Assembly (NCBI GenBank): GCA_958402495.1
Contig: CATXTS010000002.1
Span: 1-50,520 of the forward strand
Origin: an uncultured Clostridiaceae bacterium
GTDB taxonomy: Bacteria; Bacillota; Clostridia; TANB77; CAG-508
Reading direction: 5' to 3'
DNA: 50,520 nt
The translations under genes were made by a program, and so were the position numbers. Position 1 is the stretch's first letter. Every line of letters begins with the position of its first letter. Below, in pieces: positions 3,184 through 22,259 of this stretch. The notes beneath the pieces are model-generated. The model was not told the DNA's origin. It saw nothing but the letters and a program-made list of their open reading frames with translations, and ran no database searches.

Positions 3184-6100
3184 CTATCCTTTATCACCAA
3201 AAAAATGAACTAATTTCATATAATTAAATAATTTTTCAACATAATCTATATTTAAATCAGGCCAATGAAAACCTAATTTATTCAAATAATGACAAGTCAA
3301 GGTATTATCTGTTTGAATAATGTGATTATAAATAAAATCATCATTTTTGGTAAAGTCATTAATAATTCCCTTGATTTTTGATTGTTGAGAAACATTGGCA
3401 GAAAATTCTTTTACAGTTTCTATAAAATCTTCCGGTGATAATATAGAAATATTATAATGTAATTGCTTCATATAATCAAGTAAAGTAGAAACTTTTATGA
3501 AGTGAGGATTATATATATGAAAAATTTTATTATAGCAAGGGGTTGACCATATAATTTTACAGATAGCCTGTGCAGAAAAATCTACTGGAGAAAATTCTAA
3601 AGTATTTTCTAAAAGAGAGGAGGAAATACAACCCATTTCTAAAATAGATTTTAATCTTAGGTAAATAGAATTTTCTTCTATATTTTTTTGAAAAACACCA
3701 TCAGAATACCTACCTGTTAAGTCACCAATTCTATAGATAGAAGCTTGCAATCCATCAGACATAGCTGAAAGTACTAAAGATTCAGCTATAAGTTTACTTT
3801 TTGAATAAACATTATCATCAAAAGATTGACCAGAAAAAAAAGTATGTTCATCAAAAATAGAATTGGAATTATTTTGTTCAATTAAATAATTACCGGAGAT
3901 AGTCATTGTTGAAATATAATGTAACGGTAAAGAAAATTGATTACAAAGTTGTATTATATTTTTAGTACCTTGAATATTCGTTCTTTGAAAATCTGAATAA
4001 TTTCCATAATGCTTTACATTGGCAGCACAGTGAATGACGGCATTTACATTATTCTTAATAAAAGATAAATTAGTGGAATCTAAACCAATCATTTCCTCGT
4101 TAATATCTGATTCAATACAAATAACATATTTTTGAATAAGCGTATCGTAACGATTAGAAAAATAGAAATGAAATTTATCAAGTAGCCTTTCTGTAATAGA
4201 AATATTTTCTTTTTTTCTAACAGCACAATAAATTTTTTTTATGAGCAAAGGATGGTCTAATAGTTGCGCTAGAATATGAATCCCTAAGAAACCAGTTGCG
4301 CCAGTAATTAAAAAAGTTAAAGATTCAGTAGTAGGAAAAGCCTCGTAATTTCTAGAAAGATTCTTAGCAAAAGTATCCAAAGAAAGAAACTTTTCAATAT
4401 CTAAATTAGTTTGCAATTCGTTTTCAGATAATAGATGGTCATATAATTGTCTAACAGTAGGATATTTATAAAAGTCATAAACCTTTAAATTTAAATTATA
4501 TTGGAAAAGATCTGTTAGAATATTGATAATAGCTAAAGAATCAGCTCCAAAATCAAAAATGTTATTATCGATTCCGAAGTTAGAAAGATTTAATTTCTTT
4601 TTTATAGAAGAAATAATTTCCTCTTCTATAAGATTACGTGGTAATGTATAAATCTCATCTACAGTCATAGGTGTAATTTGATAATAACCTAAAGCTTTTC
4701 TATCTATTTTCCCATTAGGAGTATAAGGCAAACTATCTAATATAGTATAGGTGCTAGGAACCATATAATTTGGCAAGCAAGAAGTTAAATATTGTCTAAG
4801 TTCCTTTAGATTAATAGTCATAGTACAAGAAAGGAAAGCATTTAAGCAAACGGTATAATTATCAGACTTTATAATAACTGCTGATTTTATGTTGGCTGTA
4901 GGACAAAATCGATTAATCGTATTTTCAATTTCATCTAATTCAATGCGGAGACCATGGATTTTTACTTGATTATCACTTCTACCTTTACAAATTATGGAAC
5001 CATTTGATAACCAAAAGCCAATATCGCCAGTTTTATATAAAGTAGAGTTTGGTAAATAAGGATTTATTAGATAACGTTCTTTTGTAATGGAATCTTTATA
5101 TAAATAACCTCTTCCAACACCATCACCTGCAATATAAATTTCACCATATGTTTTAGGAGGTAATAAAGAAAGATTCTTATCTAGTATATAAATTTGTGTA
5201 TTATCAATTGGTTCTCCAATAGTAATCGTATCTAAATTTGATACATCTTTTACAGTAGAAAAAATAGTTGTCTCAGAGGGACCATATCCATTATAAACTA
5301 TACAATCAGGTGCAATAGATTTAATTTTGTCCACTAAAGATTTTGGAAGTTGCTCACCAGCTAGCATTATATACTTTAAGTTTTGAAAACCGTTAATACT
5401 TTGATTCTCTAAGTGAAAACGCATAATAGAAGGTGTAGATTGTATAATTTCAATTTGATTTTCTAAAAGAAGCCTTTCTAATTTTATAGTAATTTTTTGT
5501 TGAGATTCATTTGTTAAAAACAATTTAAGTCCACTACACAAAGAAACAATCGTCTCAAATATAAAAATATCAAAGGATACTGTAGTAATAGAAATGATAG
5601 AGTGTGGTATACCATCTTTTAAATATGCAATTTTATTTTTCATAGAAGAGACAAAATTAGACAAATTTTTATGAGTTAGCATAACACCCTTTGGATTACC
5701 TGTAGAACCAGAGGTATAAATGATATAAGAAAGGTCATCTGGCTGTGAAATAGAAGAAAGATTATCTATATTTACATTTGTATAAATAAAACGATTTTTT
5801 AAATCAGCAAAAATAATCTCTCCATTAAAACAAAAGTGATGGATTTTTTCTTCTAAATCTTCTTGTGACAATAATATTTTACTTTTACTATCGGTAAGCA
5901 TGTAACGAATTCTATCATCTGGGTATTCTGGATCAATAGGAATATAAGATGCTCCAGATTTCAAAACAGCTAAAATGCAAATAATCATTTCAAAACTACG
6001 ATGTGTCATAATAGCAATAATATCATTATTCTTAATATTTTTATTTCTTAAATAATAAGCTAAATGATTAGCCTTATCATTTAATTGCTCATATGTAAAT

Positions 6101-7542
6101 TGTTGATTTTCAAAAACAAGTGCAATGTGATTAGGGTTTTTAGCCACTTGTTCCTCAAAAAAATCTACAATCGTCTTATGTTTATCATAAACCAGTTGTG
6201 TATCGTTAAAATCATATAATAATTTTTGCTTTTCTTCAGGTGTAACAATCTCTATATCTTGAATGCATAAATTATCAGAAGAAAGAATTTGCTCAATCAT
6301 ATATAGAATTCTAGCATGTATATCTGTAATATCCTCTTTAGAATATTTAGATAAACGATAATCATAAGCAATATTTAAAGAACCCTCATCATTCATATCA
6401 AATAAATGAATTTGCATAGAATCTGCTACAAAATCATTAAAAGTCCATCTGACTTCGTAATCTACGCCAGCGGTATTCTTATTAGTTCTCGTATTTTGAT
6501 AAGAAATTAAAATATCATATAAGTTGGGTTGAGAGGGATTTTTAGCACGAATATGCTCTAGAATATTTTGATATGGATATTTCTGATGGCGAAACATAGC
6601 CAAGGCATCCATAGCAATTGTTTTAATAAAGTCAGAAAAAGAAGATTCGTTATGAATACAAAAACGAAAAGGAACGGTACTAATAAACATACCAGGCGTA
6701 TTTTTTTCTGTATAAGTGGTTCTATTTAAAATAGGAGTGCCTAAAACAAAATCGTCTAATTGAGAAACACGACCAATATAAATAGCATATACAGCCATAA
6801 AAAAATTAAAAATAGATACTTTATTTTGGGCGCAAAAAGTCTGTATACGTTCTAACTGTGAACATGGCATTACAAATAATTCTCTGCTGGCTATACAAGA
6901 ATCATTTGTGGATGCGTGTACAGAGGGAATCACACCTATTTCTGGTATAGTTTCAAACATAGTATCCCAATAGGCTTTATCTTTTTCAAATCTTTCACTA
7001 GAAAGATATTCTTTTTCAGCATCAATATAAGAAAGATAAGAGGTAGCTGCAACAGGATTGTCTTTTTTTTGTAATAGAGCCGTATAAATATTGATAACTT
7101 TGCTAGCAAGAAGACCAGCTGTACAAGCGTCAGAAATTAAATGATGGGCAGTAATAACAAAGCCACCATGACCATTTGAAAATTGAAACATTTTGAAACA
7201 AAATAATAAATTATCTATTAAAGAAATAGGGGCACTTACCATGTCCTTTTCTAATTTTTTTAAATCTTCATCTGTGTTTAAAGACACAATACTAATAGGA
7301 AAATTAGAAACAGAGGAAATGTATTGTTGTACATTTCCGGCATTATCAAATGTAAGTTTTAAACGAAAACTATCGTTATCTTTCACAAAGGTTTCGATAG
7401 CTTTTTTTAGTAAATCAAAATCAACTACTTCATGTAGCAAAACTGTACCACAAATGTGATTGATAGCGGTATCTTTATAAAATTGTTCCGTAAGCCAAAT
7501 AGATTGTTGAGGATTGGTTAAATCATAATATTTTCTTTCCAT
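3184..7542 (-). CDS. Single-module non-ribosomal peptide synthetase, domain order C-A-T-R (terminal thioester reductase)
   Basis: 1452-aa ORF. C domain: HHLISDA (aa ~133). A domain: YTSGSTGNPKG (aa ~610), NGYGPSETT, YKTGD, GRSDNQVKIHGLRIEL, PNGKIDRKAL. T domain: FGADSLA (aa ~997). R domain: ITGATGFLG (aa ~1077) and YSKSK. Confidence 0.95.
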   Translation of the reverse strand: MERKYYDLTNPQQSIWLTEQFYKDTAINHICGTVLLHEVVDFDLLKKAIETFVKDNDSFRLKLTFDNAGNVQQYISSVSNFPISIVSLNTDEDLKKLEKDMVSAPISLIDNLLFCFKMFQFSNGHGGFVITAHHLISDACTAGLLASKVINIYTALLQKKDNPVAATSYLSYIDAEKEYLSSERFEKDKAYWDTMFETIPEIGVIPSVHASTNDSCIASRELFVMPCSQLERIQTFCAQNKVSIFNFFMAVYAIYIGRVSQLDDFVLGTPILNRTTYTEKNTPGMFISTVPFRFCIHNESSFSDFIKTIAMDALAMFRHQKYPYQNILEHIRAKNPSQPNLYDILISYQNTRTNKNTAGVDYEVRWTFNDFVADSMQIHLFDMNDEGSLNIAYDYRLSKYSKEDITDIHARILYMIEQILSSDNLCIQDIEIVTPEEKQKLLYDFNDTQLVYDKHKTIVDFFEEQVAKNPNHIALVFENQQFTYEQLNDKANHLAYYLRNKNIKNNDIIAIMTHRSFEMIICILAVLKSGASYIPIDPEYPDDRIRYMLTDSKSKILLSQEDLEEKIHHFCFNGEIIFADLKNRFIYTNVNIDNLSSISQPDDLSYIIYTSGSTGNPKGVMLTHKNLSNFVSSMKNKIAYLKDGIPHSIISITTVSFDIFIFETIVSLCSGLKLFLTNESQQKITIKLERLLLENQIEIIQSTPSIMRFHLENQSINGFQNLKYIMLAGEQLPKSLVDKIKSIAPDCIVYNGYGPSETTIFSTVKDVSNLDTITIGEPIDNTQIYILDKNLSLLPPKTYGEIYIAGDGVGRGYLYKDSITKERYLINPYLPNSTLYKTGDIGFWLSNGSIICKGRSDNQVKIHGLRIELDEIENTINRFCPTANIKSAVIIKSDNYTVCLNAFLSCTMTINLKELRQYLTSCLPNYMVPSTYTILDSLPYTPNGKIDRKALGYYQITPMTVDEIYTLPRNLIEEEIISSIKKKLNLSNFGIDNNIFDFGADSLAIINILTDLFQYNLNLKVYDFYKYPTVRQLYDHLLSENELQTNLDIEKFLSLDTFAKNLSRNYEAFPTTESLTFLITGATGFLGIHILAQLLDHPLLIKKIYCAVRKKENISITERLLDKFHFYFSNRYDTLIQKYVICIESDINEEMIGLDSTNLSFIKNNVNAVIHCAANVKHYGNYSDFQRTNIQGTKNIIQLCNQFSLPLHYISTMTISGNYLIEQNNSNSIFDEHTFFSGQSFDDNVYSKSKLIAESLVLSAMSDGLQASIYRIGDLTGRYSDGVFQKNIEENSIYLRLKSILEMGCISSSLLENTLEFSPVDFSAQAICKIIWSTPCYNKIFHIYNPHFIKVSTLLDYMKQLHYNISILSPEDFIETVKEFSANVSQQSKIKGIINDFTKNDDFIYNHIIQTDNTLTCHYLNKLGFHWPDLNIDYVEKLFNYMKLVHFFGDKG

Positions 7543-10850: not shown

Positions 10851-10858
10851 AAAAGAAA

Positions 10859-10890
10859 AACGGAAGATGGTTTGTACCACCTTCCGTTTC
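10859..10890. terminator. Bidirectional hairpin terminator between convergent genes
   Basis: CGGAAGATGG (10861-10870) pairs with CCACCTTCCG (10878-10887). An A-run lies upstream and T-rich sequence downstream. On the minus strand the single mismatch becomes a G-U pair and TTCTTTTTT follows. Confidence 0.6.
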
Positions 10891-10913: not shown

Positions 10914-11057
10914 TTAATGAGGAAAAGAACGAGGCCCCTTCCCCCTGCGAAAAGACTCAGAATTGTAAAAATCAGTTCTAAACTGATTTCTATTTGATTT
11001 TTCTGATTCTCCTTCATAGTTTTTTGGTTCGCTTGGAAAAATAATTTCCGTATTCAT
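10914..11057 (-). CDS. Small hypothetical protein (47 aa)
   Basis: Below the ORF-track cutoff. Hand translation: MNTEIIFPSEPKNYEGESEKSNRNQFRTDFYNSESFRRGKGPRSFPH. A strong RBS (AAAGGAGGAAAAGTCCA) precedes the ATG, and the terminator at 10859-10890 lies immediately downstream. Confidence 0.4.
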   Translation of the reverse strand: MNTEIIFPSEPKNYEGESEKSNRNQFRTDFYNSESFRRGKGPRSFPH

Positions 11058-11600
11058 TGGACTTTTCCTCCTTTGTATGTTTTATAGAAAAATTATAACA
11101 TAATTTACATAAAAAATCAAATGCTTTTAGAGATAAACTCAAAAGTTATTTAAAGTTCCATTACTATTTACAGCTTATACTTTTCTTATTTATTATACAC
11201 TTTAAAGAATTCATGTTATAAAAAGGAAACTAAAAATAGCATGTTTGCAGGATTTTTAATAAGTAATTTTTTTGCTAAAATTTTATAACCCTTATATATT
11301 TTTTATTTGAAAGGGAGTCGTAAATTGTAACAAAGTTTCGTATATTTACAATTATAGATAAATCTAGTTATGGAAAGAAAATAATATTTGTCATCAATAA
11401 GAAATATTATCTTGTAGAAAATTAAATATATTTTGAACTTATTAAACATCTCATCTTTTTATTATAAACATATTAAATATAGATAAAAGAAAGTAATAAT
11501 GATTATTTTAAAAAAATTTAAAAAAGTATTGACAAATAGAAATGTTTTATTAAACTGTTAATAACAAAATGAAAATATCAAAAAAGAAAGGAGTGGTTGT

Positions 11601-12503
11601 ATGGAATTAAAACCGAACAGAGATAATATTTGTGGAAGAAGTTATCACTTGCTAAATGCGAAGCTAACCAATGATTGTAATGGAAGGTGTGAATTTTGCA
11701 TAGCGTCCGGTACCTATAAGGCGCCAAAAACGTCTTTAGACAAAATGATAGAGACAACAATTGCTTTAAATCAATTTCAAGATGTCGATGTCTTAGGAGG
11801 AGAACCAACATTATATAAAGATTTATATCCTTTTTTGGAAGCGATTAGACCTAAAAAATCTGGAAAAATAACTATAATAACAAATGGAAGCAATATAGAT
11901 GTTCTTATAAAATGTAAGAAATTTTTAGACACAATAATTATGAGTATACATCATTATGATTTAAATAAAAATAAAGATATTGTAGGAATCCTTGTTGACG
12001 AAAATAAATTAAAACAACTAAACAAGGAAAAAGGAGATACAGAAACTATTTTAGCTTGTGTTATATGTAAAGAAAATTTAAGCACGATAGAGGATATTAG
12101 AATTTTAGCAAAACAAGCTAAAGAATGGGGATTTGATGCGATTAAGTTAATGGAAGTAGTAACAATGAATGAAGAATATAAGGGATTTACTGATTTACAA
12201 GATTTACTGTTACCATATGGAATCCATCAAAAAAATCCTACATTAAGAGGATGCTTATTTGAATTAGATGAATTAGGAAATCATTTGGGAATAAAAACAT
12301 ATATAAAATTATGCTGTCCTTTTAATAATATATATAAGGCAAAAGATTATGGAGTACCAAACAATATTGAATATCAGCATGATTATATAAATGTTATCCA
12401 TCCAGATGGTACAGTTACAGACAGTTGGGTATATACATCATATGAAAACCAAGTTTTAAACGGAAAGGATGTGTATATAAATTATGAAAAAGAGAAGCTG
12501 TAA
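11601..12503 (+). CDS. Radical SAM enzyme, small (300 aa), paralogue A
   Basis: CNGRCEFC (CxxxCxxC) at aa 26-33, plus GGEPTLYK and ITNGSN. RBS AAAGGAG lies 7 nt upstream. Collinear similarity to the next ORF runs along the whole length. Confidence 0.85.
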   Translation: MELKPNRDNICGRSYHLLNAKLTNDCNGRCEFCIASGTYKAPKTSLDKMIETTIALNQFQDVDVLGGEPTLYKDLYPFLEAIRPKKSGKITIITNGSNIDVLIKCKKFLDTIIMSIHHYDLNKNKDIVGILVDENKLKQLNKEKGDTETILACVICKENLSTIEDIRILAKQAKEWGFDAIKLMEVVTMNEEYKGFTDLQDLLLPYGIHQKNPTLRGCLFELDELGNHLGIKTYIKLCCPFNNIYKAKDYGVPNNIEYQHDYINVIHPDGTVTDSWVYTSYENQVLNGKDVYINYEKEKL

Positions 12504-13338
12504 AAATTATTGCATGGGTGTAATGGGTCCTAGACTAGTCATAAAAGTAAATAATAGTTGCAACGGAAAATGCTTTTTCTGTGTGGGACGTGATAATAAA
12601 CCATTACCTACGGTAGATGTAAAGGTATTAATTAAAAAAGCCATTGAATTAGAAAATTATCCAAATGTTTTAATTTTAGGTGGAGAGCCAACATTATATA
12701 AAAATCTACAGGAACTGGTTAAAGGAATAGCACCATATAAAAAGAAAATTACAATAACTACAAATGGAAGCAACTTATCTTGCTTATTACCAATCGTGCA
12801 ATATTTAGATAAAATAATTGTTAGTATTATGCACTATGATAAAGAAAAGAATAAAGATATTGTAGGTGTTAATATTGAAGATGATGGAAAACTAATTAAA
12901 GAATTTGCTAAGATAAATCCGAAATTAAAACTTCGAGTAAATTGTGTTATGTTAAAAAGCGGAATCTCAACAATAGAAGATATGAAAAAAATAGCTACAT
13001 ATGTAAAACAATTAGGATTTAACTCATTAAGATTTTCAGAAGTTACTAGCCCTAAATTATATGATGAAGAATTTATAAATATATCCTATTTATTAAAAGA
13101 TTATGGCATACACCAAAAAGATACTGTTACACATGGATGTTATTTAGAGCCACCCATTTTGGAAGAACTTTTCGGAATAAAAACAATACTCAATTTATCT
13201 TGTATATTAAAAGCTCCTACAAAAATATATAAAATGCAATTAACAGAAGAGGAAATGTTAGAAGAAATTGAACCCATGAAAAATGTAGATAGCCTAATTT
13301 TACATCAAAATGGAATCGTATATAAAGATTTTCAATAA
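12484..13338 (+). CDS. Radical SAM enzyme, small (284 aa), paralogue B
   Basis: CNGKCFFC at aa 26-33, plus GGEPTLYK and TTNGSN. It shares the blocks HYD..NKDIVG, STIED and YGIHQK with paralogue A. The 12484 start places the cluster at the same position as in A and overlaps A by 20 nt. Confidence 0.85.
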   Translation: MKKRSCKNYCMGVMGPRLVIKVNNSCNGKCFFCVGRDNKPLPTVDVKVLIKKAIELENYPNVLILGGEPTLYKNLQELVKGIAPYKKKITITTNGSNLSCLLPIVQYLDKIIVSIMHYDKEKNKDIVGVNIEDDGKLIKEFAKINPKLKLRVNCVMLKSGISTIEDMKKIATYVKQLGFNSLRFSEVTSPKLYDEEFINISYLLKDYGIHQKDTVTHGCYLEPPILEELFGIKTILNLSCILKAPTKIYKMQLTEEEMLEEIEPMKNVDSLILHQNGIVYKDFQ

Positions 13339-13351
13339 AGGAGAATGTCCT

Positions 13352-13525
13352 ATGAATTATATGTATTTAATAAAGAAAATAACAGAGTCTGTGAATGTAG
13401 ATAATGAAGAGGTATCGACTATAAGAAAAGTAGCATCCGAAGGTAATTTTATTTTTAACAAAGAACAATATGAAGAACAAATAAACAAATATCAGGATGG
13501 AAAATTAAAAGATTTATATTGTTAA
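13352..13525 (+). CDS. Small acidic protein (57 aa) ending ...KLKDLYC. It may be a partner or a substrate of the radical SAM pair.
   Basis: The ORF-track ORF 13310-13525 is trimmed to the ATG that has an RBS (AAAGGAGA, 7 nt, ATG). Sequence: MNYMYLIKKITESVNVDNEEVSTIRKVASEGNFIFNKEQYEEQINKYQDGKLKDLYC. Confidence 0.5.
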   Translation: MNYMYLIKKITESVNVDNEEVSTIRKVASEGNFIFNKEQYEEQINKYQDGKLKDLYC

Positions 13526-13614
13526 GACTTAAAGTAAAAGAAAAATCATAATGAAAATAGATATTATGATAAGAATATAAACTAGTTAAGAAAGTATACT
13601 GAATAGCCATAAAA

Positions 13615-13644
13615 ATATACAAGGTAGTTAATTACCTTGTATAT
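13615..13644 (-). terminator. Hairpin terminator downstream of tRNA-Pro (may also stop the radical SAM operon)
   Basis: Perfect 12-bp stem: ATATACAAGGTA (13615-13626) pairs with TACCTTGTATAT (13633-13644). On the minus strand TTTTTATGG follows. Confidence 0.55.
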
Positions 13645-13689
13645 TACTTATTGAATATATCCATATAATTGCTTTTTCGCAACCTTGCA

Positions 13690-13765
13690 TGGTCGAGGTG
13701 ACAGGAATCGAACCTGCGACCTCATGGTCCCAAACCACGCGCGCTACCAACTGCGCTACACCTCG
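13690..13765 (-). tRNA. tRNA-Pro (anticodon UGG)
   Basis: The reverse complement folds as a cloverleaf: CGAGGTG TA GCGC AGTTGGTA GCGC G CGTGG TTTGGGA CCATG AGGTC GCAGG TTCGATT CCTGT CACCTCG A CCA. Confidence 0.9.
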
Positions 13766-13872: not shown

Positions 13873-13889
13873 AAATAACATAGTAAAAT

Positions 13890-13928
<39 letters not shown>

Positions 13929-13946
13929 ACGCACACCCATAGTTTT

Positions 13947-14045: not shown

Positions 14046-14122
14046 GTGCCTGTAGTTTAGCTGGATAGAATGGCAGGCTACGAACTTGCAGATCGGGGGT
14101 TCGAATCCCTCCAGGCACACCA
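14046..14122 (+). tRNA. Island-borne complete tRNA-Arg (anticodon ACG)
   Basis: GTGCCTG TA GTTT AGCTGGATA GAAT G GCAGG CTACGAA CTTGC AGATC GGGGG TTCGAAT CCCTC CAGGCAC A CCA. The stems differ from the split host copy by compensatory changes, while the T-arm is identical. Confidence 0.9.
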
Positions 14123-14130
14123 TTTGGTAA

Positions 14131-14172
14131 AACATAGTTCTCAAGCTAGTTTGAGAACTATGTTCTTTTTTT
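14131..14172 (+). terminator. Intrinsic terminator after the island tRNA-Arg, overlapping the integrase 3' end
   Basis: Perfect 14-bp stem: AACATAGTTCTCAA (14131-14144) pairs with TTGAGAACTATGTT (14151-14164). CTTTTTTT follows. Confidence 0.75.
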
Positions 14173-15562
14173 GAGGCTTTTTCTTTAAAAAGTATCGCTT
14201 TACTTGTGTAGACTTACTTTCAGCATTTTTTGTTTTCCCCTGAAATTCCTCAAAATTTACTCTTTCAAACTCCTTTTTCTTTCGTTCTTCTGATACATGA
14301 ATATAGTAAAAATCTGTTGTTTCAAATTCGGCATGTCCCATTAATTCTCGTAAAACCTCTTTATCCATACCTTTTTCACTCATTAAAGTTGCAAAAGAAT
14401 GTCTAAAACCATAAATTGTCATGTGTTCTAATTTATATTTCTTTATAAATTCTGTAATCTTTTTAGTTAATCTTTCTGGAACATAAGGTGTTCCAATAGT
14501 ATTTAAAAACACATATTGCTCATTATCCCATTCCTCACCATATTGTAGATTATTCATTTTTTCTCTTTTTAAGTTAAGTAGCATTTCTTTTAATCTTGGA
14601 GTCATTGGAATATTACGATAACTTTCTGTGGTTTTTAAATCTCCATCGGTCATTATATGTCCTGTAATATTCATTTCATCATCATATAATGTAATGTCTT
14701 TATAAGCATTTTCTACTCTGATTTTGTTTTGATTAAAGTGTACCGATTTCCATTTCAAACCACAACCTTCTTCTGGTCGCATACCTGTTTGAAGTAAGGT
14801 AGCAAAAAGTAGTGCAAATGGTCTTTTATCTTTTTCACATACATCAAGCCATACTCTTTGTCTATCTTCTGTTAAATAACATACCTTTGCTACCTTTGCT
14901 CTTTTCTTCTTTTGAAATTTTAAATCAAAATTAGGTACTTCTTTTATTAATCCTTTTTTATCTTTAGCATAAGCTAAGACTGCTCTAATAAGCAAGAATA
15001 AATCTTTTGCTAGTCTAGGTGTTTGTTGCCTTTTCTCATTTATATAGTTTTCTACCATTTCTTTACTGATTTCGCTAACATGATAATTTTTAAAATCAAT
15101 CATTACATGATTTTTAATTGTGTTTATGTAAGTTTCAACAGTTTTTAAACTAATCGTTTTATTTGTGCTAGGATTTACTTGTTTCTTTTTCCAATTAAGC
15201 CATTCCTTTGCTATATTTGGAAACAAAGTATAATCATCTGCTAACAATTCTATTTTCCTTTTTTCTTTTTCTTCATTAAATTCAGTAAACTTATTTAATT
15301 CTGATGAACACTCTTCTGTAAATACTTTGACATTAGGATTTGTACTATTTTTTTGAATATCAAAATATATATCAGTAATTAGTTCTCCTAATCTTTTTCT
15401 TGCTTCTTTTTCTGTTCTTGCTGTCCTTGATAATCTTGGATTTCTATCAACTCCTTCCATTATTGAATTAAGGGCTAACGTTACTCTTGCCTCATAGCTA
15501 TTTCCTTTTTTCCTTATTGTAACTGTTCCTTTTGGTGCTCTTTGTCTATTTATCTTTTTCAT
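14141..15562 (-). CDS. int: Tyrosine recombinase / phage-type integrase
   Basis: C-terminal catalytic region: TGMRPEE (Arg), GFRHSFATL (His-x-x-Arg), GHAEFETTDFYYIH (His/Tyr). Start is set at the ATG preceded by GGAAGGAG; the track ORF extends 5 codons further to a TTG. Confidence 0.9.
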   Translation of the reverse strand: MKKINRQRAPKGTVTIRKKGNSYEARVTLALNSIMEGVDRNPRLSRTARTEKEARKRLGELITDIYFDIQKNSTNPNVKVFTEECSSELNKFTEFNEEKEKRKIELLADDYTLFPNIAKEWLNWKKKQVNPSTNKTISLKTVETYINTIKNHVMIDFKNYHVSEISKEMVENYINEKRQQTPRLAKDLFLLIRAVLAYAKDKKGLIKEVPNFDLKFQKKKRAKVAKVCYLTEDRQRVWLDVCEKDKRPFALLFATLLQTGMRPEEGCGLKWKSVHFNQNKIRVENAYKDITLYDDEMNITGHIMTDGDLKTTESYRNIPMTPRLKEMLLNLKREKMNNLQYGEEWDNEQYVFLNTIGTPYVPERLTKKITEFIKKYKLEHMTIYGFRHSFATLMSEKGMDKEVLRELMGHAEFETTDFYYIHVSEERKKKEFERVNFEEFQGKTKNAESKSTQVKRYFLKKKPQKKNIVLKLA

Positions 15563-15666
15563 GATAACTCCTTCCAAAATATAAATAGTTTAAAAGGGCT
15601 CGAAACTTAATATCAAGATATATCTTATCACGTTTAAAACAAGAAATCAGCCCTTTTTTCTAGTTA

Positions 15667-15876
15667 TTAATATTCATAGTCATCATACTGTCCAGAATTC
15701 TCTGCAAACCATTTTGGTAGCATTTCTTTATTAACAATTATTTTTCTTTTAAATTTAACTGCTGGAAATCCATCTAATTTAACTAATTCCAACATTAAAT
15801 TTCTTCCGATTCCTAACATTTTTCTTGCTTCATCTATTGATATTCCTATTCTTTCATCTTCTTCATTATTTGACAT
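15667..15876 (-). CDS. xis: Excisionase-type helix-turn-helix DNA-binding protein
   Basis: 69 aa, adjacent to int. Typical Xis/MerR-like HTH: ISIDEARKMLGIGRNLMLELVKLDGFPAVKFKRKIIV. Start moved to the second ATG, 7 nt after AGGAGGT. Confidence 0.75.
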   Translation of the reverse strand: MSNNEEDERIGISIDEARKMLGIGRNLMLELVKLDGFPAVKFKRKIIVNKEMLPKWFAENSGQYDDYEY

Positions 15877-15950
15877 ACACATTACCTCCTTTGTAAAAAT
15901 AGTAAGAGTAAAATTTATCCTTCTACTAGATAAGTTCCAAAAGCACCTTT

Positions 15951-16140
15951 AAAATGTAACGATTTTTGAAAAATTTTTTAAAATTTTCTATAAAATTCAC
16001 TCTTCAATATGTAAATGCCAGGCAGATATCAAAAAGGTATAATTTTGAAAAGATTTTTTTAATTTTTCTCTCCTATAAGATAAATGCCACCATTTTATAA
16101 AAAAGTGGTAAATTTCAAAAATTTTTTTAAACTTTTTGAA
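15951..16140. repeat. Three degenerate tandem units of about 70-80 bp between xis and the cargo operon
   Basis: ATTTTTGAAAAATTTTTTAAAATTTTCT (15962-15989), AATTTTGAAAAGATTTTTTTAATTTTTCT (16041-16069), AATTTCAAAAATTTTTTTAAACTTTTTG (16111-16138). TAAATGCCA occurs at 16012 and 16081. Confidence 0.5.
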
Positions 16141-16209
16141 GAATTATTAAATTAAAGTAAAATACTAGAATTAGATTTGGCTATTTCTATATATTTTGTA
16201 AAGAAAATA

Positions 16210-16218
16210 TGTTATAAT
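16210..16218 (+). promoter_or_regulatory. Extended -10 promoter element (TGtTATAAT) for the deaminase operon
   Basis: TGTTATAAT lies 29 nt upstream of ATG 16247. No good -35 element is present. Confidence 0.4.
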
Positions 16219-16246
16219 TCAATCAAATTTATAGGAGGTAACCAAG

Positions 16247-17092
16247 ATGACTGATGAACAATATATTGATATTGCAATAGATATATCTTCAAAGGCTAAA
16301 TATCCTTATGGTGCTATTGTAGTAAAAAATGGGAAGATTATTGGTAGAAGTGATGATAAGACTTTAATGGAAACAAGTATGTATTCTCATGCAGAACTAG
16401 AGGCAATAGAAAGCGCATCAAAGAATAAAAATCTTTATGGAGATTTAAAAGGTGCAACAATATATGTATCTTGTGAACCTTGTATGATGTGTATGGGAGC
16501 AATACTATACGAAAAGTTTTCAAAAATCGTTTATGCAGCAACACTACAAGATAGTAATGATAATTATTGTCCAGAGATGATTACTAATATAGATGAGTTA
16601 ACAAAATACGGAAATACTAAAATTGAAATAATAAAAGAATTACATAGAGAAAAGGCAGTAGAAATTTTGAAACAACACAAAGATAAAATTAAAAATAGAA
16701 TTTTAATTACAGGTGCTGTATTATCATCAAATGAGGCTTCAACTCAAACATATAATAAAATTACATCAATAATAGATAAGCATAAATTTTTAATTTCTAG
16801 CCCAATAGATACTATGAATTTTAAAGGTAATGACTATGAAAGATATGAGAGAGCAATGGATTTGTTAAGAGATACCAAAAAAATTATTGCAGAAATGAGT
16901 ACTACATCAACAGGTCAAGGTATGGAATTACAAGAAGCGACTAATCTACATATTCCAATATTGGTTATTGCTAAAAATGGTAGTAAAATATCGGGGCTAG
17001 TTAAGGGATGTAAAAATATAAAGGATATCATATTTTATGATAACATAGAAAGTATACAAGAAAAAATTAAAACATTTATTGAGGAGGAATAA
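16247..17092 (+). CDS. Fusion of a CMP/dCMP-type zinc deaminase domain with a nucleoside 2-deoxyribosyltransferase / DNPH1(Rcl)-like domain
   Basis: N-terminal HAELEAI ... CEPCMMCMGA (zinc-binding H-A-E / C-x-x-C). C-terminal ILITGAVLSS ... STGQGMELQEA matches the DNPH1/NDT catalytic-Glu block (S-x-G-x-G-x-E-L-x-x-A). Confidence 0.75.
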   Translation: MTDEQYIDIAIDISSKAKYPYGAIVVKNGKIIGRSDDKTLMETSMYSHAELEAIESASKNKNLYGDLKGATIYVSCEPCMMCMGAILYEKFSKIVYAATLQDSNDNYCPEMITNIDELTKYGNTKIEIIKELHREKAVEILKQHKDKIKNRILITGAVLSSNEASTQTYNKITSIIDKHKFLISSPIDTMNFKGNDYERYERAMDLLRDTKKIIAEMSTTSTGQGMELQEATNLHIPILVIAKNGSKISGLVKGCKNIKDIIFYDNIESIQEKIKTFIEEE

Positions 17093-17093
17093 T

Positions 17094-17645
17094 ATGAGTA
17101 ATTATTTGTTAATACATGGAAGTTTTGGAAGTCCTTTTGTAAATTGGTTTCCATATTTAAGAAATGAAATAGAAAAAAGAGAATTAGTAGTCTATACTCT
17201 GGATTTTCCCACAGGAGTAGGTTATCAAAATTATAGTAATTGGGAAAAAGTATTAGAAAGTTATGTAAGTGCTGGAATAGTAAATGAAAATACTATTATT
17301 TTTGCTCATTCTATTGCTCCAATATTTGTTTGCCATTTTTTAGTTAGTCACAATATTAAAGTAAAAAGATTAGTATTTGTATGTGGATTTAATAATTATT
17401 TAGGAATTAACGAAGAATATGACAATGTAAATGAAACCATGTATTTTGATAATTTAGAAGATGTAAAAAAATTAGCACAAGAGATTATTTGTTTTTATTC
17501 CAAAAATGATCCCTATGTGAAATATGAAGTTGAAAAAGAATTTGCAGACACAATAGCAACAAAGCAAATAGTAATTGATGATGGAGGACACTTGAATTCT
17601 GAAAGTGGATATACAGAATTTAAAGAATTATTAGAATTCATATAA
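17094..17645 (+). CDS. Alpha/beta serine hydrolase, YdeN/RBBP9-like
   Basis: LLIHGSFGSP near the N-terminus and the nucleophile elbow FAHSIAP; about 183 aa. Start set at the ATG after GAGGAGG, 1 nt after the upstream stop. Confidence 0.7.
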   Translation: MSNYLLIHGSFGSPFVNWFPYLRNEIEKRELVVYTLDFPTGVGYQNYSNWEKVLESYVSAGIVNENTIIFAHSIAPIFVCHFLVSHNIKVKRLVFVCGFNNYLGINEEYDNVNETMYFDNLEDVKKLAQEIICFYSKNDPYVKYEVEKEFADTIATKQIVIDDGGHLNSESGYTEFKELLEFI

Positions 17646-17661
17646 AGATATTGGAGGAAAT

Positions 17662-18228
17662 ATGAAAATTTTAATTTTAAGTTTCAGTAGTAATCAAGTA
17701 AATGAAGATAGTTTTATTCCTAATAAAATTGGTTTAACTTTTTCTTGTGTAGAAGAATGTGAAAAAGAATTAAAAAAATTAGGAAAAGAAGTAGAACATA
17801 TCTGTATAAATAAAAAGAATATAAAGAAATGCCTAGCTTGTGGAAAAAGAGGTTGGGGAATTTGTTTAGAGAAACATAAATGTATTCAAAAAGATGATTT
17901 TAATGAGATTTATGAATATATGAATAATTTTAATGCCTACATATTTATTACTCCAGTTTATTTTTGGGAAATGAGCGAATCTGCAAAAACATTCTTTGAT
18001 AGACTAAAAAGATGTGATGCTTTTAACGATAATTCTAAAATCAAAGGAAAGAAAGTTATTTGTATCGCTTGTGCAGGTGGAAGTGGAAATGGAACAGAAG
18101 AAACATTAAAATCTTTTGATATATTAAACCACTTCTTAAAGACAGAAATAGTTGGAAGAATACCAGTTACTAAAGTTACTTTTGAAAGTCAAAAAGAAAA
18201 AATTAGAAAAACGGTAAATTCTTTATAA
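17662..18228 (+). CDS. Flavodoxin-fold (NADPH-dependent FMN reductase / iron-sulfur flavoprotein-like) protein
   Basis: 188 aa. Contains CLACGKRGWGIC, then FITPVYFWEMSESAKTFFDR, which is typical of the FMN_red fold. RBS GGAGG. Confidence 0.6.
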   Translation: MKILILSFSSNQVNEDSFIPNKIGLTFSCVEECEKELKKLGKEVEHICINKKNIKKCLACGKRGWGICLEKHKCIQKDDFNEIYEYMNNFNAYIFITPVYFWEMSESAKTFFDRLKRCDAFNDNSKIKGKKVICIACAGGSGNGTEETLKSFDILNHFLKTEIVGRIPVTKVTFESQKEKIRKTVNSL

Positions 18229-18326
18229 TGTAGTAATTAAAAAATTGGCAATTACATATACTTCATTAAAACTATGTATATGATTGCCAATATAAACTAT
18301 AATATACTTTCTATTTTTACTTATAA

Positions 18327-18635
18327 TTAACACATTCTAATATCAAATTTATTGCGTCTGAAAATCCGTATTTTATAGAATTTTTCATTTTCATAAAATC
18401 CAATAATATTTATTTTGTCAATATAACTGTCTAAACTATTTCTGACACCTTCTAATTCTTCTTGTGTATGTGGCAAATCTTCTATTATGCAAAATAGCTT
18501 TTCATAACTATCATTATCCTTAGTTAAAGTTGCAATCCTTTCCTTGTCCTTTTCCGTTAAAGAATATAAATTCTCTTCTCTACATTCAAATAGTGTGTTT
18601 AAAACAGTTTCTTTTTTTACTTTTTCCTCTGACAT
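18327..18635 (-). CDS. Hypothetical protein (102 aa)
   Basis: ORF with a GGAGGTAG RBS 5 nt before ATG 18635. No motif recognised. Confidence 0.5.
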   Translation of the reverse strand: MSEEKVKKETVLNTLFECREENLYSLTEKDKERIATLTKDNDSYEKLFCIIEDLPHTQEELEGVRNSLDSYIDKINIIGFYENEKFYKIRIFRRNKFDIRMC

Positions 18636-18719
18636 ATTTACTACCTCCAATATTAATTTGATAGTAGTATAACGTGCTCAATTCAATTTGTCAGCCTATT
18701 TTTATGATTTTTTAAATAT

Positions 18720-19604
18720 TTAATTTTGTGCAAGTGATAATTTAATTTGATTATTAGAAAAGATAGATTTTTCTATAATTTCTATAGCCTTAATTGCATC
18801 ATTAAAACTTACATTTTTTGCATACTCATGTTTTTGAGAATAATCTAGCCATAATCTATTTAAAAACGGATTATTCTTTAATGTTTTGATTGTTTCTTTT
18901 ATATTTCGCAGTTCAATTATACTATTTCTAGCCGAAAAAGTTCTAATAATAGCTTCTGATAAAATTTCTTTATCTATGCTATTCCATTTATAATTAATGA
19001 AAAAGTACAAATCGTAGTAATCTTTCATTCTGCTATTTGTTACTTTTCTTTCTAATATTGATTGTAACTTTTCAGCAATAATTGTTTCTTGATTATAAGA
19101 TAAAATGTCTATGTATGAATTATCAAATAATTTTTTATATTTATATTCAATAGCTCTAGGAGTAATAACATCTCCAGTTGATACATCCATATGAAATTGT
19201 ACTTTTATATTTTCATACGTAGCAATTATTTTAAATTGATAACCACCATAATATTCTTCTTGTTTTATATCTTCAACTTTCTCTATTTTAAATGTCACAC
19301 TATCTCCAATATCCATATTTAAAACTTCTTTAAGTATTTTAGATAATTCTTCTTTGTCTAAATTAATTCCAGTTACATTTGTATCAATATCCATTGTTGT
19401 TCTTAAATTAATTCCCATAATAGAAGATAGTAATAAACCACCTTTTATAATAAAATTTTCTTTATATTTAGATTTAGATAATCTTTCTAATATTCTTTCA
19501 AACATATAATTTTGTAGTACTTGCTGAATTGAAATGTTATTTTCTTTTGCTATATTTTTAGCTTGGTCTTTTAAAGACTTTGCATTTTTTATCATATAAT
19601 CCAC
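18720..19604 (-). CDS. abiEii: AbiEii/AbiGii-family nucleotidyltransferase toxin (type IV TA / abortive infection)
   Basis: 294 aa. N-terminus is typical of DUF1814 (NYMFERILERLSKS...FIIKGG...RTTMDIDT). Overlaps the upstream AbiEi-like gene by 13 nt. Confidence 0.8.
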   Translation of the reverse strand: MDYMIKNAKSLKDQAKNIAKENNISIQQVLQNYMFERILERLSKSKYKENFIIKGGLLLSSIMGINLRTTMDIDTNVTGINLDKEELSKILKEVLNMDIGDSVTFKIEKVEDIKQEEYYGGYQFKIIATYENIKVQFHMDVSTGDVITPRAIEYKYKKLFDNSYIDILSYNQETIIAEKLQSILERKVTNSRMKDYYDLYFFINYKWNSIDKEILSEAIIRTFSARNSIIELRNIKETIKTLKNNPFLNRLWLDYSQKHEYAKNVSFNDAIKAIEIIEKSIFSNNQIKLSLAQN

Positions 19605-20179
19605 TCCATTACCGTTTCTAATTGTTTAGTACATTTTAACTTTTCAGCATATTTATATATTTTATTTATATCTACTTTATTGCTTGTAATAATGTTTCTG
19701 ATAAATTTATTGCTTTGTTCCTTATCTATGCCAGTGTTTCGCCCTTTAATAATATCGCATATCGTTCTTTCAATATTGTAAGCTTTCACATTAAATCCAT
19801 GTGGAGTTTTTACTGTAATAGCTCCCATATTAAGTAGTTCTTTTTTTATATAATGAACTCTAATATTAGATGGAAATCTTTGTTTATTATATCCACTATA
19901 TACTGTTACATCTATTTTATCGGGAGTTCTTTCAGTTTCTCCCAAAAAGTAGATTGCTGTATTGTAAGAAAAAATAGCATTACTATTTTTCATCTGAAAT
20001 ATATAGAATTCATCTTCTATCATGTCACTTGCCATATAGATTCCTTTTTGTACTTTTTCAATAATACCACTTTCTACAAATTGTTTTATATGTACTCTAG
20101 GAATACCGATTTCTTCAATTTGCTTTGTTCTAATTATTCCATTATTTTGTTCTAGAAGTTTTTTTATTTTTTCTTCCAT
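19592..20179 (-). CDS. abiEi: AbiEi-family antitoxin / transcriptional regulator
   Basis: 195 aa. N-terminal winged-helix NNGIIRTKQIEEIGIPRVHIKQFVESGIIEKVQKGIY is typical of AbiEi_4. Paired with AbiEii. Confidence 0.8.
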   Translation of the reverse strand: MEEKIKKLLEQNNGIIRTKQIEEIGIPRVHIKQFVESGIIEKVQKGIYMASDMIEDEFYIFQMKNSNAIFSYNTAIYFLGETERTPDKIDVTVYSGYNKQRFPSNIRVHYIKKELLNMGAITVKTPHGFNVKAYNIERTICDIIKGRNTGIDKEQSNKFIRNIITSNKVDINKIYKYAEKLKCTKQLETVMEWII

Positions 20180-20246
20180 AATCTCACCTCTTTACAATAG
20201 TACTTATATTATATCATTTTTAAGTATTATTGTAAAGTAGACATTA

Positions 20247-20729
20247 TTATTTCTTTTGATTTGCGTACTGTAATCTTTCAGTTACAAATTTTAATTGCTT
20301 CCTGTACGATAAGATAAATAGAACTGTTAATGCTAAAAATAATAAACTAATTTTATAGAATATGTTATTTATAAAACTATAATATATCTCTAATATTGTT
20401 AAACATAAAAATACTGATATATAAGTCCTATACTGATTTGCTTCTCTTTGTAATAATTCAACTTTATTATCTGTTTTACTACAATTTATGTATTGACTAT
20501 ATTTTACACAAGTTATTATTTTAAATTTTTCTAATATTGGTTTTATTATTATAGATCCTACCCTACTTAATACTAAACCAATAAAGTAATACTCAATGAT
20601 GGCTATTATTATATTATCATTAAAAAAGTTGTTTTGCATGATTTCTGTGAATATTGTTCCAAATATGATTCCAGGTAATAGATAGTTTATAAAATGATAA
20701 ACTTCCATTTTCTCAATTATTTTTTCCAT
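20247..20729 (-). CDS. Small integral membrane protein (about 4 TM), third gene of the MBL operon
   Basis: 160 aa. Hydrophobic segments: FINYLLPGIIFGTIF, IIIAIIEYYFIGLVL, YISVFLCLTILEIYY, ISLLFLALTVLFILS. Overlaps the upstream gene by 17 nt. Confidence 0.6.
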   Translation of the reverse strand: MEKIIEKMEVYHFINYLLPGIIFGTIFTEIMQNNFFNDNIIIAIIEYYFIGLVLSRVGSIIIKPILEKFKIITCVKYSQYINCSKTDNKVELLQREANQYRTYISVFLCLTILEIYYSFINNIFYKISLLFLALTVLFILSYRKQLKFVTERLQYANQKK

Positions 20730-21186
20730 TTATTTTCATCCTTTCGAGAGAATTATCTAGCATTGTATATATATCTTCTTTTCTATTTCTATATAACATA
20801 ATTTCTTCATCTGTAATATCAAAACCAAATCCAATTTCTTTTCCTTTACAATAATTTACTTTTGTAGAATTGTTAGGAAGATAAATGTTCTTATCATGTA
20901 TATTTTTTAGTTGTTTAATTTTTTTAGTATTACATGAAATAATAATAATATCTTTTTCTGGCAATGTAACTATATTTTGTATAATATAGTTACTAGTTAA
21001 AGGATCATGACCAATTATCATTAAAATATTGGGTTGATGAGTGGGAATACTATTTAATACAGTTATATCTCTATCAGAATTTTTGTTATCTTTTAGAGTA
21101 TATATATGAAACAGTTCATATATATACTCTATTCTAGCAATAACTTCTTCGTTAGATACATTATTTTTACAAATTAAATATCTCAT
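20713..21186 (-). CDS. Hypothetical cytoplasmic protein (157 aa), middle gene of the MBL operon
   Basis: The ORF overlaps the MBL gene stop by 4 nt (ATGA). No motif recognised. Confidence 0.6.
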   Translation of the reverse strand: MRYLICKNNVSNEEVIARIEYIYELFHIYTLKDNKNSDRDITVLNSIPTHQPNILMIIGHDPLTSNYIIQNIVTLPEKDIIIISCNTKKIKQLKNIHDKNIYLPNNSTKVNYCKGKEIGFGFDITDEEIMLYRNRKEDIYTMLDNSLERMKINGKNN

Positions 21187-22049
21187 ATTCCTAGATTTCC
21201 TGTAACTGTTCTATTTTGTGAAATTATGTTTTCATCTAATGTTAATAGTCCTTTTTCTTTAGTATTCATTACCCTATAACCTTTTGTATTTAGTTTGTCT
21301 GATCCTCCATTTGAATTGCCAGTATTATCTGAAATTATATATTGCTTATCTAAATCTTTCTTAGTTTCATTAAATATCCTTTCACCTATATCTGCATTTC
21401 CATGATGAGGCAATTGTATTATTTTAAAATCCCCTAAATTCTCTGTCATTACAGATTCGAATGATGAATCTCCTGTTAGTAATATTTTTTTATTATCCAA
21501 TGTAATTTCTAAATGAATGCTTGTTGCATTTGTAATTGTTGAACTATCTATAGTATCTCCTTCTGTAGAATCTAATCCTTTTGCTGCCGCATCTAATATA
21601 TAATCCTTACCTGGTCCTGATATTTTAATTCCATCTGATATTTCTATATGTTCAAAAGCATCCTTTAAATTATTTCCAGATAATTGAGCTATGTTGTCAT
21701 ATGTATCTAATAGTTGTCTTTTTAAAGATTCTCTATTTTTCCTTCCATCATCAATAATATCCAAAAGTTTATCTACATATTTTAATAGCAATACAGTAGT
21801 TATTTCTGATGTTTTACCTTTTTCTACTAGTATAGGAATCCCCTTAAAATGATCATCGTCATTGTGTGATAATATTACTTTTACATTTGAATAATTGTGT
21901 TCTTTCATATAGCTAATTACCCAATTGGCATAATCTTCACATCCACAATCATATATTACTAGCTCTTTATTGTTATCTATTACAAAGCAATCTCCATTAT
22001 TTTTACTCTCATCTTCACATTCTTGCGAACTTAAAACATAAATTTTCAT
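21183..22049 (-). CDS. Metallo-beta-lactamase-fold hydrolase (ComEC/Rec2-like subtype; possible nuclease)
   Basis: 288 aa. Contains VILSHNDDDHFKG (H-x-D-x-D-H variant of HxHxDH), LLTGDS and QLPHHGN. Confidence 0.8.
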   Translation of the reverse strand: MKIYVLSSQECEDESKNNGDCFVIDNNKELVIYDCGCEDYANWVISYMKEHNYSNVKVILSHNDDDHFKGIPILVEKGKTSEITTVLLLKYVDKLLDIIDDGRKNRESLKRQLLDTYDNIAQLSGNNLKDAFEHIEISDGIKISGPGKDYILDAAAKGLDSTEGDTIDSSTITNATSIHLEITLDNKKILLTGDSSFESVMTENLGDFKIIQLPHHGNADIGERIFNETKKDLDKQYIISDNTGNSNGGSDKLNTKGYRVMNTKEKGLLTLDENIISQNRTVTGNLGI

Positions 22050-22077
22050 TCAAATTCTTCCTTTCTCTTAAAAACTT

Positions 22078-22115
22078 AAAAAAAATTGGTTTAAAACATA
22101 TTTGTTTTAGACCAA
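22078..22115 (-). terminator. Terminator-like hairpin plus U8, only about 29 nt upstream of the MBL start codon
   Basis: Minus strand: TTGGTCTAAAAC-AAATAT-GTTTTAAACCAA (11 of 12 bp paired), followed by TTTTTTTT. Confidence 0.5.
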
Positions 22116-22215
22116 CTATTCTAGTTTTTCAATTTTTGTTTTTAAAAACATATTGGTCTCCTTTCTAGAAACCAATACAAAAGTTCGCTACTTTACAAAT
22201 GTAACTATTTGTTCT

Positions 22216-22259
22216 ATAATAAGTATGTATAAATTCTTGGCGGAATTCATACTTATTAT
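22216..22259. promoter_or_regulatory. Long composite stem-loop in the ATPase-MBL spacer
   Basis: Perfect 12-bp arms: ATAATAAGTATG (22216-22227) pairs with CATACTTATTAT (22248-22259). An inner AATTC/GAATT stem is nested inside. Confidence 0.4.

Follow-up and report, generated by a model that had tools for sequence, protein, structure and literature searches.

Two paralogous radical SAM genes and a small Tyr-Cys-terminated protein form a conserved cassette with an apparently split C-terminal tail

What kind of chemistry is encoded when two small radical S-adenosylmethionine (SAM) proteins, each a paralogue of the other, are followed by a 57-residue protein that ends in Tyr-Cys? The question is raised by a compact trio of genes, here called A, B and C, in the genome of an uncultured Clostridiaceae bacterium (assembly GCA_958402495.1, contig CATXTS010000002.1, positions 1 to 50,520), a stretch of 50,520 nt referred to throughout as the window. 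It is well supported that the trio is a self-contained cassette in which two radical SAM subunits, paralogues of each other, are joined by a small protein with a constrained terminal Tyr-Cys. In our classification it is a new subfamily inside the known radical SAM superfamily, set apart by its unusual split-tail architecture.

Gene A (11601-12503, plus strand) encodes a radical SAM protein of 300 amino acids (aa) with the cluster-binding motif CNGRCEFC at residues 26-33 and without a Cys-bearing tail, and gene B (12484-13338, plus strand), of the type termed B1 below, encodes one of 284 aa with CNGKCFFC at residues 26-33. The two genes overlap by 20 nt and their products are 41% identical over 224 aa (E = 2e-50), so their paralogy is far beyond chance. 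Both match PF04055 (Radical_SAM), A additionally matches Fer4_12, and Pfam and NCBIfam scans of the two found no SPASM or twitch tail; in the alignment, the B1 protein of the window stops exactly at the end of the catalytic core (...VYKDFQ). Gene C (13352-13525, plus strand) has its own ribosome-binding site (AAAGGAG, 13337-13343) and encodes an acidic protein of 57 aa that terminates in ...KLKDLYC; both of its ends are conserved, MNYMYL(I/M)KKI at the N-terminus and KDLYC at the C-terminus. Its ATG at 13352 is the start kept in relatives, and an alternative in-frame ATG at 13310, inside B, is unused by the 57-aa homologues. No transporter, protease, kinase or regulator was found next to the trio in the window. 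An earlier note, made from the letters of this DNA, had already described the two collinear, overlapping open reading frames (ORFs) and their sizes, their CxxxCxxC motifs, the missing SPASM/twitch Cys-rich tail, the third ORF with its ribosome-binding site and the lack of such accessory genes; these observations were confirmed, and the ORF list bears out the dimensions exactly. Three further conserved cysteines to which it drew attention are real and family-wide, and a fourth (Cys11 in A, Cys10 in B) is now added.

The pair is rarely broken up. A/B homologues are common in metagenome-assembled genomes (MAGs) of gut Clostridia, and of about 55 related loci (numbered with the prefix L) nearly all have A and B in tandem, including 19 of 19 species-representative genomes recovered, L001-L014 and those metagenome loci that are long enough to show both genes. 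Such strict conservation, usually with overlapping reading frames, fits a heteromer of A and B. The full A-B-C trio stays syntenic in relatives down to 46% identity. Flanking genes vary among lineages, and the cassette is therefore autonomous and mobile; three Bacilli MAG loci have an upstream Mob_Pre-family gene or fragments of one (L057 by Pfam, L059 and L063 as its cluster-mates).

A simple rule links the type of B to the presence of C. B1, which ends at the core, is always followed by C, with the ending KDLYC (KYYC in L014). The commoner type, B2, is 288-290 aa long and has no ORF downstream; it carries a tail of about 12 extra residues with an invariant D(L/I)AN(D/E)RGAC, found in 17 of 17 genome loci and 14 of 14 metagenome loci. 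Relatives of C are few, as an exhaustive search of 1.84 billion representatives yielded five clusters at 50% identity. Four of these have full-length representatives of 57 aa that start with M(N/K)Y(M/I)(Y/L)LMKKI, end in KDLYC and show identities down to 40%. The fifth, P0242 with 70 aa, is a variant with a frameshift. The copies of C in L067 and L086 have the same conserved N- and C-termini. The terminal Tyr-Cys of the small protein is invariant. On the phage-like contig L014 (3228-8399), with a pair that is 48% and 46% identical, nrdD and an nrdG-like activase gene flank the trio, and the small ORF after the pair is 55 aa long and ends in KYYC.

At greater distance (~30% identity), each homologue is encoded by one gene, is 300-365 aa long and in most cases comes from a viral contig or a phage-like neighbourhood. 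Their tail consists of a SHOCT-like helix (PF22746 in several) followed by a variable linker, and 64 of the 83 end in C-x-Y, typically G-G-C-(Q/V/H)-Y. The extension beyond the core has a median length of about 60 aa, against 57 aa for C. Because a Cys-bearing tail is found in cis where C is missing, in B2 and in most of the distant homologues, and because the lengths are similar, C looks like a detached tail module, and we infer that it arose by gene fission from the C-terminus of an ancestral enzyme. That the terminal Cys-bearing tail, fused or separate, is under strong constraint is well supported. An all-against-all BLAST of neighbours of the viral single-gene homologues found no conserved partner gene, and Pfam assigned unrelated functions to 10 of these neighbours (RtcB, terminase, sugar enzymes, methylase). 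The occurrence of single-gene homologues in such unrelated phage neighbourhoods argues for a ubiquitous substrate over a dedicated partner peptide.

Constraint extends to cysteines outside the SAM motif, which were counted in an alignment of 71 sequences (23 A-type, 10 B-type and 38 distant homologues) and are numbered as in A. The window's A has such residues at positions 11, 153, 218, 238 and 239 and its B at 10, 152, 219 and 240, where Cys11 of A, or Cys10 of B, lies in an N-x-C-G motif. All 23 A-type and all 10 B-type sequences have C11, C218 and C239; among the distant homologues, C218 and C239 occur in 38/38 and C11 in 37/38, the remaining one being a gap, which brings C11 to 70 of 71 overall. 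C153 is found in all B-type and distant sequences and in 7 of 23 A-type sequences, the window's A among these 7, and C238 was gained in the A family (21 of 23). The four conserved cysteines at 11, 153, 218 and 239 suggest an auxiliary [4Fe-4S] site, which B would have kept and A appears to have remodelled. Since B keeps both the Cys set and the tail, in cis or in trans, it would be the ancestral-like subunit and A the derived partner.

A and B lie outside every curated family. NCBIfam returns weak, partial matches for both, to models of viperin, MoaA, a tungsten-cofactor maturase, peptide maturases and activases, at 16-55 bits against cut-offs of 131-650; the best scores are 45-55 bits where 180-325 are needed. 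MoaA models (TIGR02666, TIGR02668, NF001199) give 38-55 bits against 231-325 and match over the N-terminal ~200 profile positions only, models of SPASM/twitch maturases (MftC, PqqE, SkfB, SCIFF and others) give 16-51 bits against 265-650, and the HxsC model TIGR03977 gives 34.3 and 24.7 bits against 267.9, with no ORF of a His-Xaa-Ser (HxS) repeat protein found nearby. PHROGs returned generic radical SAM families only. The structures of both proteins are predicted by AlphaFold2 with high confidence (predicted local distance difference test, pLDDT, 91.9 for A and 94 for B), and the best Foldseek matches in the PDB are SuiB, BlsE, viperin and MoaA, with template modelling (TM) scores of 0.5-0.65 (up to 0.64 for A and 0.65 for B) at no more than 22% identity; a family profile run against PDB sequences found SkfB and YydG as well as viperins, and none of these matches had an E-value better than 1e-8. 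A search of a viral structure library added nothing, and GenBank phages gave weak matches only (Lak megaphages and Dulem virus 40, whose tandem Fe-S genes are not close relatives). From weak partial family scores and distant fold matches it follows that A and B belong to an uncharacterised branch of the radical SAM superfamily. We propose a clade that borders on MoaA, on viperin and on radical SAM enzymes that modify peptides, yet is outside all of them, and define it by CxxxCxxC, cysteines equivalent to 11, 153, 218 and 239, and a C-terminal tail, in cis or in trans, with a Cys among its final three residues. B and C together have all of these features, and A has the cysteines without the tail. 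A literature search found no paper on this clade, its C-terminal tail or its link to NrtR described below, and none that mentions NrtR together with radical SAM or radical SAM together with SHOCT; papers joining radical SAM with Thoeris concern the unrelated systems Ophion and HXS.

If the cassette carries no accessory genes of its own, what does it work on? Clustering of the neighbours at 26 pair loci revealed one recurrent family: proteins of 275-318 aa that combine Nudix with an NrtR winged-helix domain (NrtR_WHD) and represent a divergent NrtR-type regulator. The gene lies divergently and immediately upstream of A in L049, L051, L053, L058, L060 and L061, and as a pseudogene in L048; an independent metagenome sample contributed 11 further loci, for a total of 18 (7 genome and 11 metagenome) with differing outer flanks. 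L056 has an NrtR paralogue that is 40% identical, and in L055 and L056 pncB, the gene for nicotinate phosphoribosyltransferase, is immediately upstream of the pair and co-directional with it. NrtR responds to adenosine diphosphate (ADP)-ribose and mostly controls the synthesis or salvage of nicotinamide adenine dinucleotide (NAD), and in some cases pentose use or ADP-ribosylation (PMC2330246). The repeated pairing with NrtR and pncB suggests a so far unrecognised radical step tied to NAD or ADP-ribose metabolism.

The promoter of the cassette offers a second connection. A sigma-70-type promoter at 11529-11556 on the plus strand (TTGACA, 16 nt, TAAACT; the -35 at 11529, the -10 ending at 11556) is conserved, only about 45-70 nt upstream of the ATG of A. 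The block TTGACAAAT...GTTAATAACAAAA upstream of A is also found in NrtR-linked relatives, in L005-L007 and in L045, and the promoter block TTGACAAAT...TTGTTTTTAA-N7-TTAATAACAAAA is common to NrtR-linked loci and the lineage of the window. At the -10/+1 position lies a perfect 11-bp palindrome, TGTTAATAACA (11556-11566), a candidate repressor operator, which in NrtR-linked loci is part of the inverted repeat TTGTTTTTAA-N7-TTAATAACAA. No second exact copy of TGTTAATAACA occurs in the window, and of the 10 exact matches across 629 kb of related loci, 9 are at the A promoter.

Other neighbours recur less often. In seven loci, a minority pattern, the pair has a gene for a Tad8-family protein upstream of it (L001-L004, L054, L062 and L076). 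In L001, a chromosomal locus of gut Clostridia, it is a 141-aa protein (5260-5685) with two tandem Tad8 (PF25189) domains about 300 nt upstream of the pair. Phages use Tad8 to inhibit type II Thoeris (PMC13243611). In L001 the Tad8-like protein was considered as an equivalent of the YC-terminal partner and rejected as a chance resemblance, since its YC reads YR in L003 and L004 and most loci do not have the protein; C is not itself a Tad8, as it has no PF25189 match and the Tad8-like protein of L001 is a separate upstream gene. Minus-strand fragments of a short-chain dehydrogenase (SDR; adh_short) lie just upstream of A in L001 (5752-5871), L003 (3090-3209) and L008 (3966-4608); no intact copy was seen in these loci and no remnant in the window. 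In L087 (5001-6724) and L088 (5075-6676), the NrtR-adjacent A and B are broken into several tblastn segments, which suggests pseudogenisation in some lineages.

Taken together, these observations lead us to favour, tentatively and at somewhat less than even chances, an explanation in which A and B are subunits of one radical SAM enzyme, the tail represented by C is a catalytic accessory, and the substrate is of a nucleotide type linked to NAD or ADP-ribose. The ancestral form would have been a single polypeptide, today mostly on viral contigs, with the SAM motif, four cysteines probably holding an auxiliary [4Fe-4S] cluster, and a C-terminus made of a short SHOCT-like helix, a variable linker and a terminal G-G-C-x-Y. 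In gut Clostridia, duplication would have produced A and B, of which A lost the tail and often one auxiliary-cluster Cys as it became the derived partner, and B remained ancestral-like. One Cys-bearing tail would be retained per pair, fused to B (...RGAC) or split off as C (...KDLYC, as in the window). C would dock onto the A-B complex through its conserved N-terminal helix so that its terminal Tyr-Cys could swing into the active site, where the tail may act as a hydrogen-atom donor, a radical relay, or a ligand or gate of the cluster. The enzyme would then act on a small nucleotide-type substrate tied to NAD or ADP-ribose metabolism, and be expressed from a promoter with a palindromic operator; alongside this promoter, relatives have a divergent NrtR-type regulator. 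Inferred steps of this scheme are the heteromer, a second cluster in each subunit, the part played by the tail and the class of substrate. MoaA provides a precedent for the accessory role, as its auxiliary cluster binds guanosine triphosphate (GTP) and its disordered C-terminal tail is thought to contribute to catalysis (10.1101/2020.01.16.909697), which combines a working tail with a substrate-binding auxiliary cluster.

Several observations weigh against this explanation. The nearest neighbours in sequence and structure include the maturases SuiB, SkfB and YydG of peptides that are made on ribosomes and modified after translation (RiPPs), which would fit a tail that is the substrate. The derivation of C from a fused tail is strained by the terminal motifs, which differ between the forms (CxY, YC and AC), and by an hhalign comparison of the C family with the extensions, which gave one match, collinear and on the SHOCT-like segment, at a weak P = 0.02 and a probability of 2%. 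As to the metabolic link, NrtR-linked loci are often closely related and therefore not fully independent, and neither an NrtR nor a pncB gene occurs in the 50-kb window. The published NrtR operator is a 21-bp palindrome with the core GT-N7-AC (PMC2330246), which TGTTAATAACA mismatches, and the promoter has no counterpart in C-bearing loci outside the window lineage. Since the palindrome departs from the published core and the regulator gene is missing here, NrtR control of the window cassette is put forward as a hypothesis.

The chief competitor makes the tail the substrate: A and B would modify the terminal Tyr-Cys of C, or their own tail when it is fused, by a cross-link, an oxidative decarboxylation or a conversion of the Cys-to-formylglycine type, comparable to the action of MftC on MftA, and the product would be a peptide-derived cofactor or signal. 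In its favour, the terminal residues are invariant at the chain end, C varies in its middle and is conserved at both ends, much like a leader followed by a core, a long variable tether would let the tail reach the active site, and the peptide maturases SkfB, YydG/EpeE and SuiB are among the closest solved relatives in sequence and fold. Against it, a SPASM domain, a RiPP recognition element (RRE), a peptidase or an exporter was found in none of the ~55 pair loci, the phage loci have no conserved neighbour, the MftC and PqqE models reach 21-23 bits where 265-381 are required, and in most members fusion of the tail to the enzyme would limit each enzyme molecule to one product. With the tail mostly within the enzyme polypeptide, a tethered catalytic element or an intramolecular substrate is likelier than a free precursor peptide. 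The accessory role is preferred because the tail is usually fused, processing and export genes are never alongside, and the bacterial copies belong to a metabolic regulon; the substrate role we regard as rather unlikely, and if true it would make the cassette a minimal self-contained peptide-modification unit. A little further down the scale is a new class of enzymes in which the tethered C-terminus is the working part, with the C of the window as a sacrificial or recyclable Cys/Tyr donor or a peptide-cofactor precursor that feeds NAD/ADP-ribose homeostasis. This is an unlikely scheme, yet if true it would explain NrtR control in gut Clostridia as well as the single-gene form in many phages, possibly directed against NAD-depleting immunity.

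The viral setting invites another reading, a viperin-like antiviral or anti-defence enzyme that makes a modified nucleotide, such as a 3'-deoxy-3',4'-didehydro (ddh) nucleotide, in phage-host conflict, with C incidental or regulatory. PADLOC pVip models match both A and B (~55 bits, E = 1e-15), viperins rank high in the structural comparison, many members of the family come from viral contigs, the Tad8-family protein is encoded upstream of the pair in seven loci, and the cassette moves between contexts, Mob_Pre-linked loci included. However, the NCBIfam viperin model (NF038283) scores 45.6 bits for A and 46.1 for B against a cut-off of 180 and matches profile positions ~4-193 of 281, that is, the generic N-terminal two-thirds of the fold; viperins have neither the auxiliary-cluster cysteines nor a Cys tail; the neighbours are NrtR and pncB, not defence islands, and the prophage adjoining B in L004 reflects mere integration at the adjacent tRNA. 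We consider this reading distinctly improbable. Very improbable indeed is that A and B are activases that install a glycyl or thiyl radical on a partner protein, where C would serve as a small "spare part" that bears the radical. Some homologues are annotated as organic radical or pyruvate formate-lyase (PFL) activating enzymes, the PFL activating enzyme is among the structural matches, and the L014 trio sits between nrdD and an nrdG-like gene. Yet L014, the one locus with nrdD, already has its own NrdG, the activase models (PflA, NrdG; TIGR02493, TIGR02495) give 31-38 bits against 131-232, no glycyl-radical enzyme was found near the pair in the window (no Gly_radical protein) or in the other ~50 loci, and the C tail has no Gly-radical motif (RVxG[FY]).

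How, then, does the first interpretation of this locus fare? The earlier note had suggested a heteromeric enzyme that acts on, or is served by, the small protein, and is partly supported. Three of the checks that it had named came out in its favour: no full-length match to a characterised family was obtained, and the synteny of the trio and the conservation of its terminal Tyr-Cys were borne out. Its analogy to exported or released precursors of the MftA/MftC or PqqA/PqqE type was not supported, as SPASM, RRE, peptidase and transporter genes were found in no locus, and the 540-nt AT-rich "leader" that it had pointed out is no feature. That stretch (11058-11600) is an ordinary spacer between A and a divergent, conserved 47-aa ORF (10914-11057, minus strand), and the corresponding spacer in 95%-identical relatives has only ~226 nt. 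The difference is a strain-specific AT-rich insertion of ~320 nt (11160-11490), missing from the 95%-identical relatives L006 and L045, and does not belong to the system; it has no further copy within the window and contains no remnant of an NrtR, SDR or PncB gene. A riboswitch or other leader RNA was rejected for 11058-11600, as Rfam gives no match even at E <= 1 and the stretch is unconserved and holds this insertion. The 47-aa ORF has a strong ribosome-binding site and a terminator hairpin (10857-10890), is an annotated gene in L005-L007 and has no Pfam match.

Downstream of C lies a hairpin with a 12-bp stem and a 6-nt loop (13615-13644), a weak call read from the sequence, which went unreported by the terminator scan because it has no T-run. 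It is a possible terminator common to C and the convergent tRNA-Pro gene (13690-13765, minus strand) downstream of the trio. Further along, a truncated tRNA-like sequence has its 5' fragment at 13881-13940, and an integrated element of ~11.5 kb (14123-25603) begins next to an intact tRNA-Arg(ACG) gene (14046-14122), which its tyrosine-type integrase (14141-15577, 478 aa) adjoins, and has a 39-nt partial tRNA-Arg copy (25565-25603) at its far end. Close relatives lack the ~11.5-kb element or have a different one at that site. In these relatives a homologue of a 679-aa window gene (25706-27745) sits immediately 3' of the trio, so the island is unrelated to the cassette. The idea that the pair is prophage cargo, prompted by lysis genes that adjoin B in L004, was discarded in the same way, since that prophage sits in a tRNA downstream of B, like the integrase island of the window. 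Elsewhere in the window, a 1452-aa ORF (3184-7542, minus strand) corresponds in L006 and L007 to a single-module protein resembling nonribosomal peptide synthetases (condensation, AMP-binding, PP-binding and reductase domains), and an Rfam match to the ssNA-helicase RNA motif (RF03070; 32962-33010, plus strand) scores 49.8 bits, above the gathering score.

Radical SAM enzymes of uncharacterised role are common. What makes this clade more tractable than most is its signature, a flexible tail, present in cis or in trans, with a Cys at its extreme C-terminus (C-x-Y, Y-C or A-C), and in the natural split version, B plus C, the role of the tail is directly accessible by mixing. Members of the clade abound on viral contigs and in gut Clostridia. 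The Pfam subfamilies, NCBIfam, PHROGs and the PDB do not include it, and annotation tools will probably assign it wrongly to MoaA or viperin. NAD and ADP-ribose metabolism is, moreover, central to the conflict between phages and bacteria.

How the cassette relates to known systems depends on which of its parts is compared. It resembles viperins and their prokaryotic counterparts (pVip) as small stand-alone radical SAM enzymes of similar size, frequent in mobile or viral contexts, and the core is matched; unlike A and B, viperins have no auxiliary-cluster cysteines, no paired paralogue and no Cys tail. With MftC/MftA and PqqE/PqqA it shares the link between a radical SAM enzyme and a small encoded protein that has its reactive part in conserved C-terminal residues, and the C-terminus of MftA is ...CGVY. 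Those systems differ in their SPASM domains, RRE chaperones (MftB or PqqD), peptidases and downstream tailoring genes, all missing here, where the tail is also mostly fused. The HxsB/HxsC (His-Xaa-Ser) system, recently shown to be an anti-phage system (PMC13128918), likewise combines genes for two radical SAM proteins with one for a small target; the present cassette differs from it in having no HxS-repeat protein, HxsA or HxsD, and its HxsC score is far below the cut-off. In the lipoyl synthase LipA, the Ser of an RSSY motif ligates the auxiliary cluster. This two-cluster radical SAM enzyme has its conserved RSSY near the extreme C-terminus, where it controls substrate binding and reactivity (PMC13232139). 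For a terminal C-x-Y tail it offers a functional analogy and no more. There is no sequence relationship to LipA and no lipoyl or octanoyl carrier context.

MoaA gives B its best NCBIfam matches (51-55 bits) and shows the highest full-length structural similarity (TMq 0.64). The scores are nevertheless far under the cut-offs of 231-325 bits, only the N-terminal two-thirds aligns, and no molybdopterin genes were found near the pair. The auxiliary cysteines of MoaA form a C-terminal CxxCx13C and its tail ends in Gly-Gly, unlike the one N-terminal and three later cysteines seen here and a tail that ends in Cys or Tyr. MoaA can be likened to the present proteins in its two [4Fe-4S] sites, the second built from cysteines outside the SAM motif, in its nucleotide substrate and in a disordered C-terminal tail implicated in catalysis. 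If the tail of the new clade is a catalytic arm, it would extend the theme, already seen in MoaA and LipA, of C-terminal tails that gate radical chemistry.

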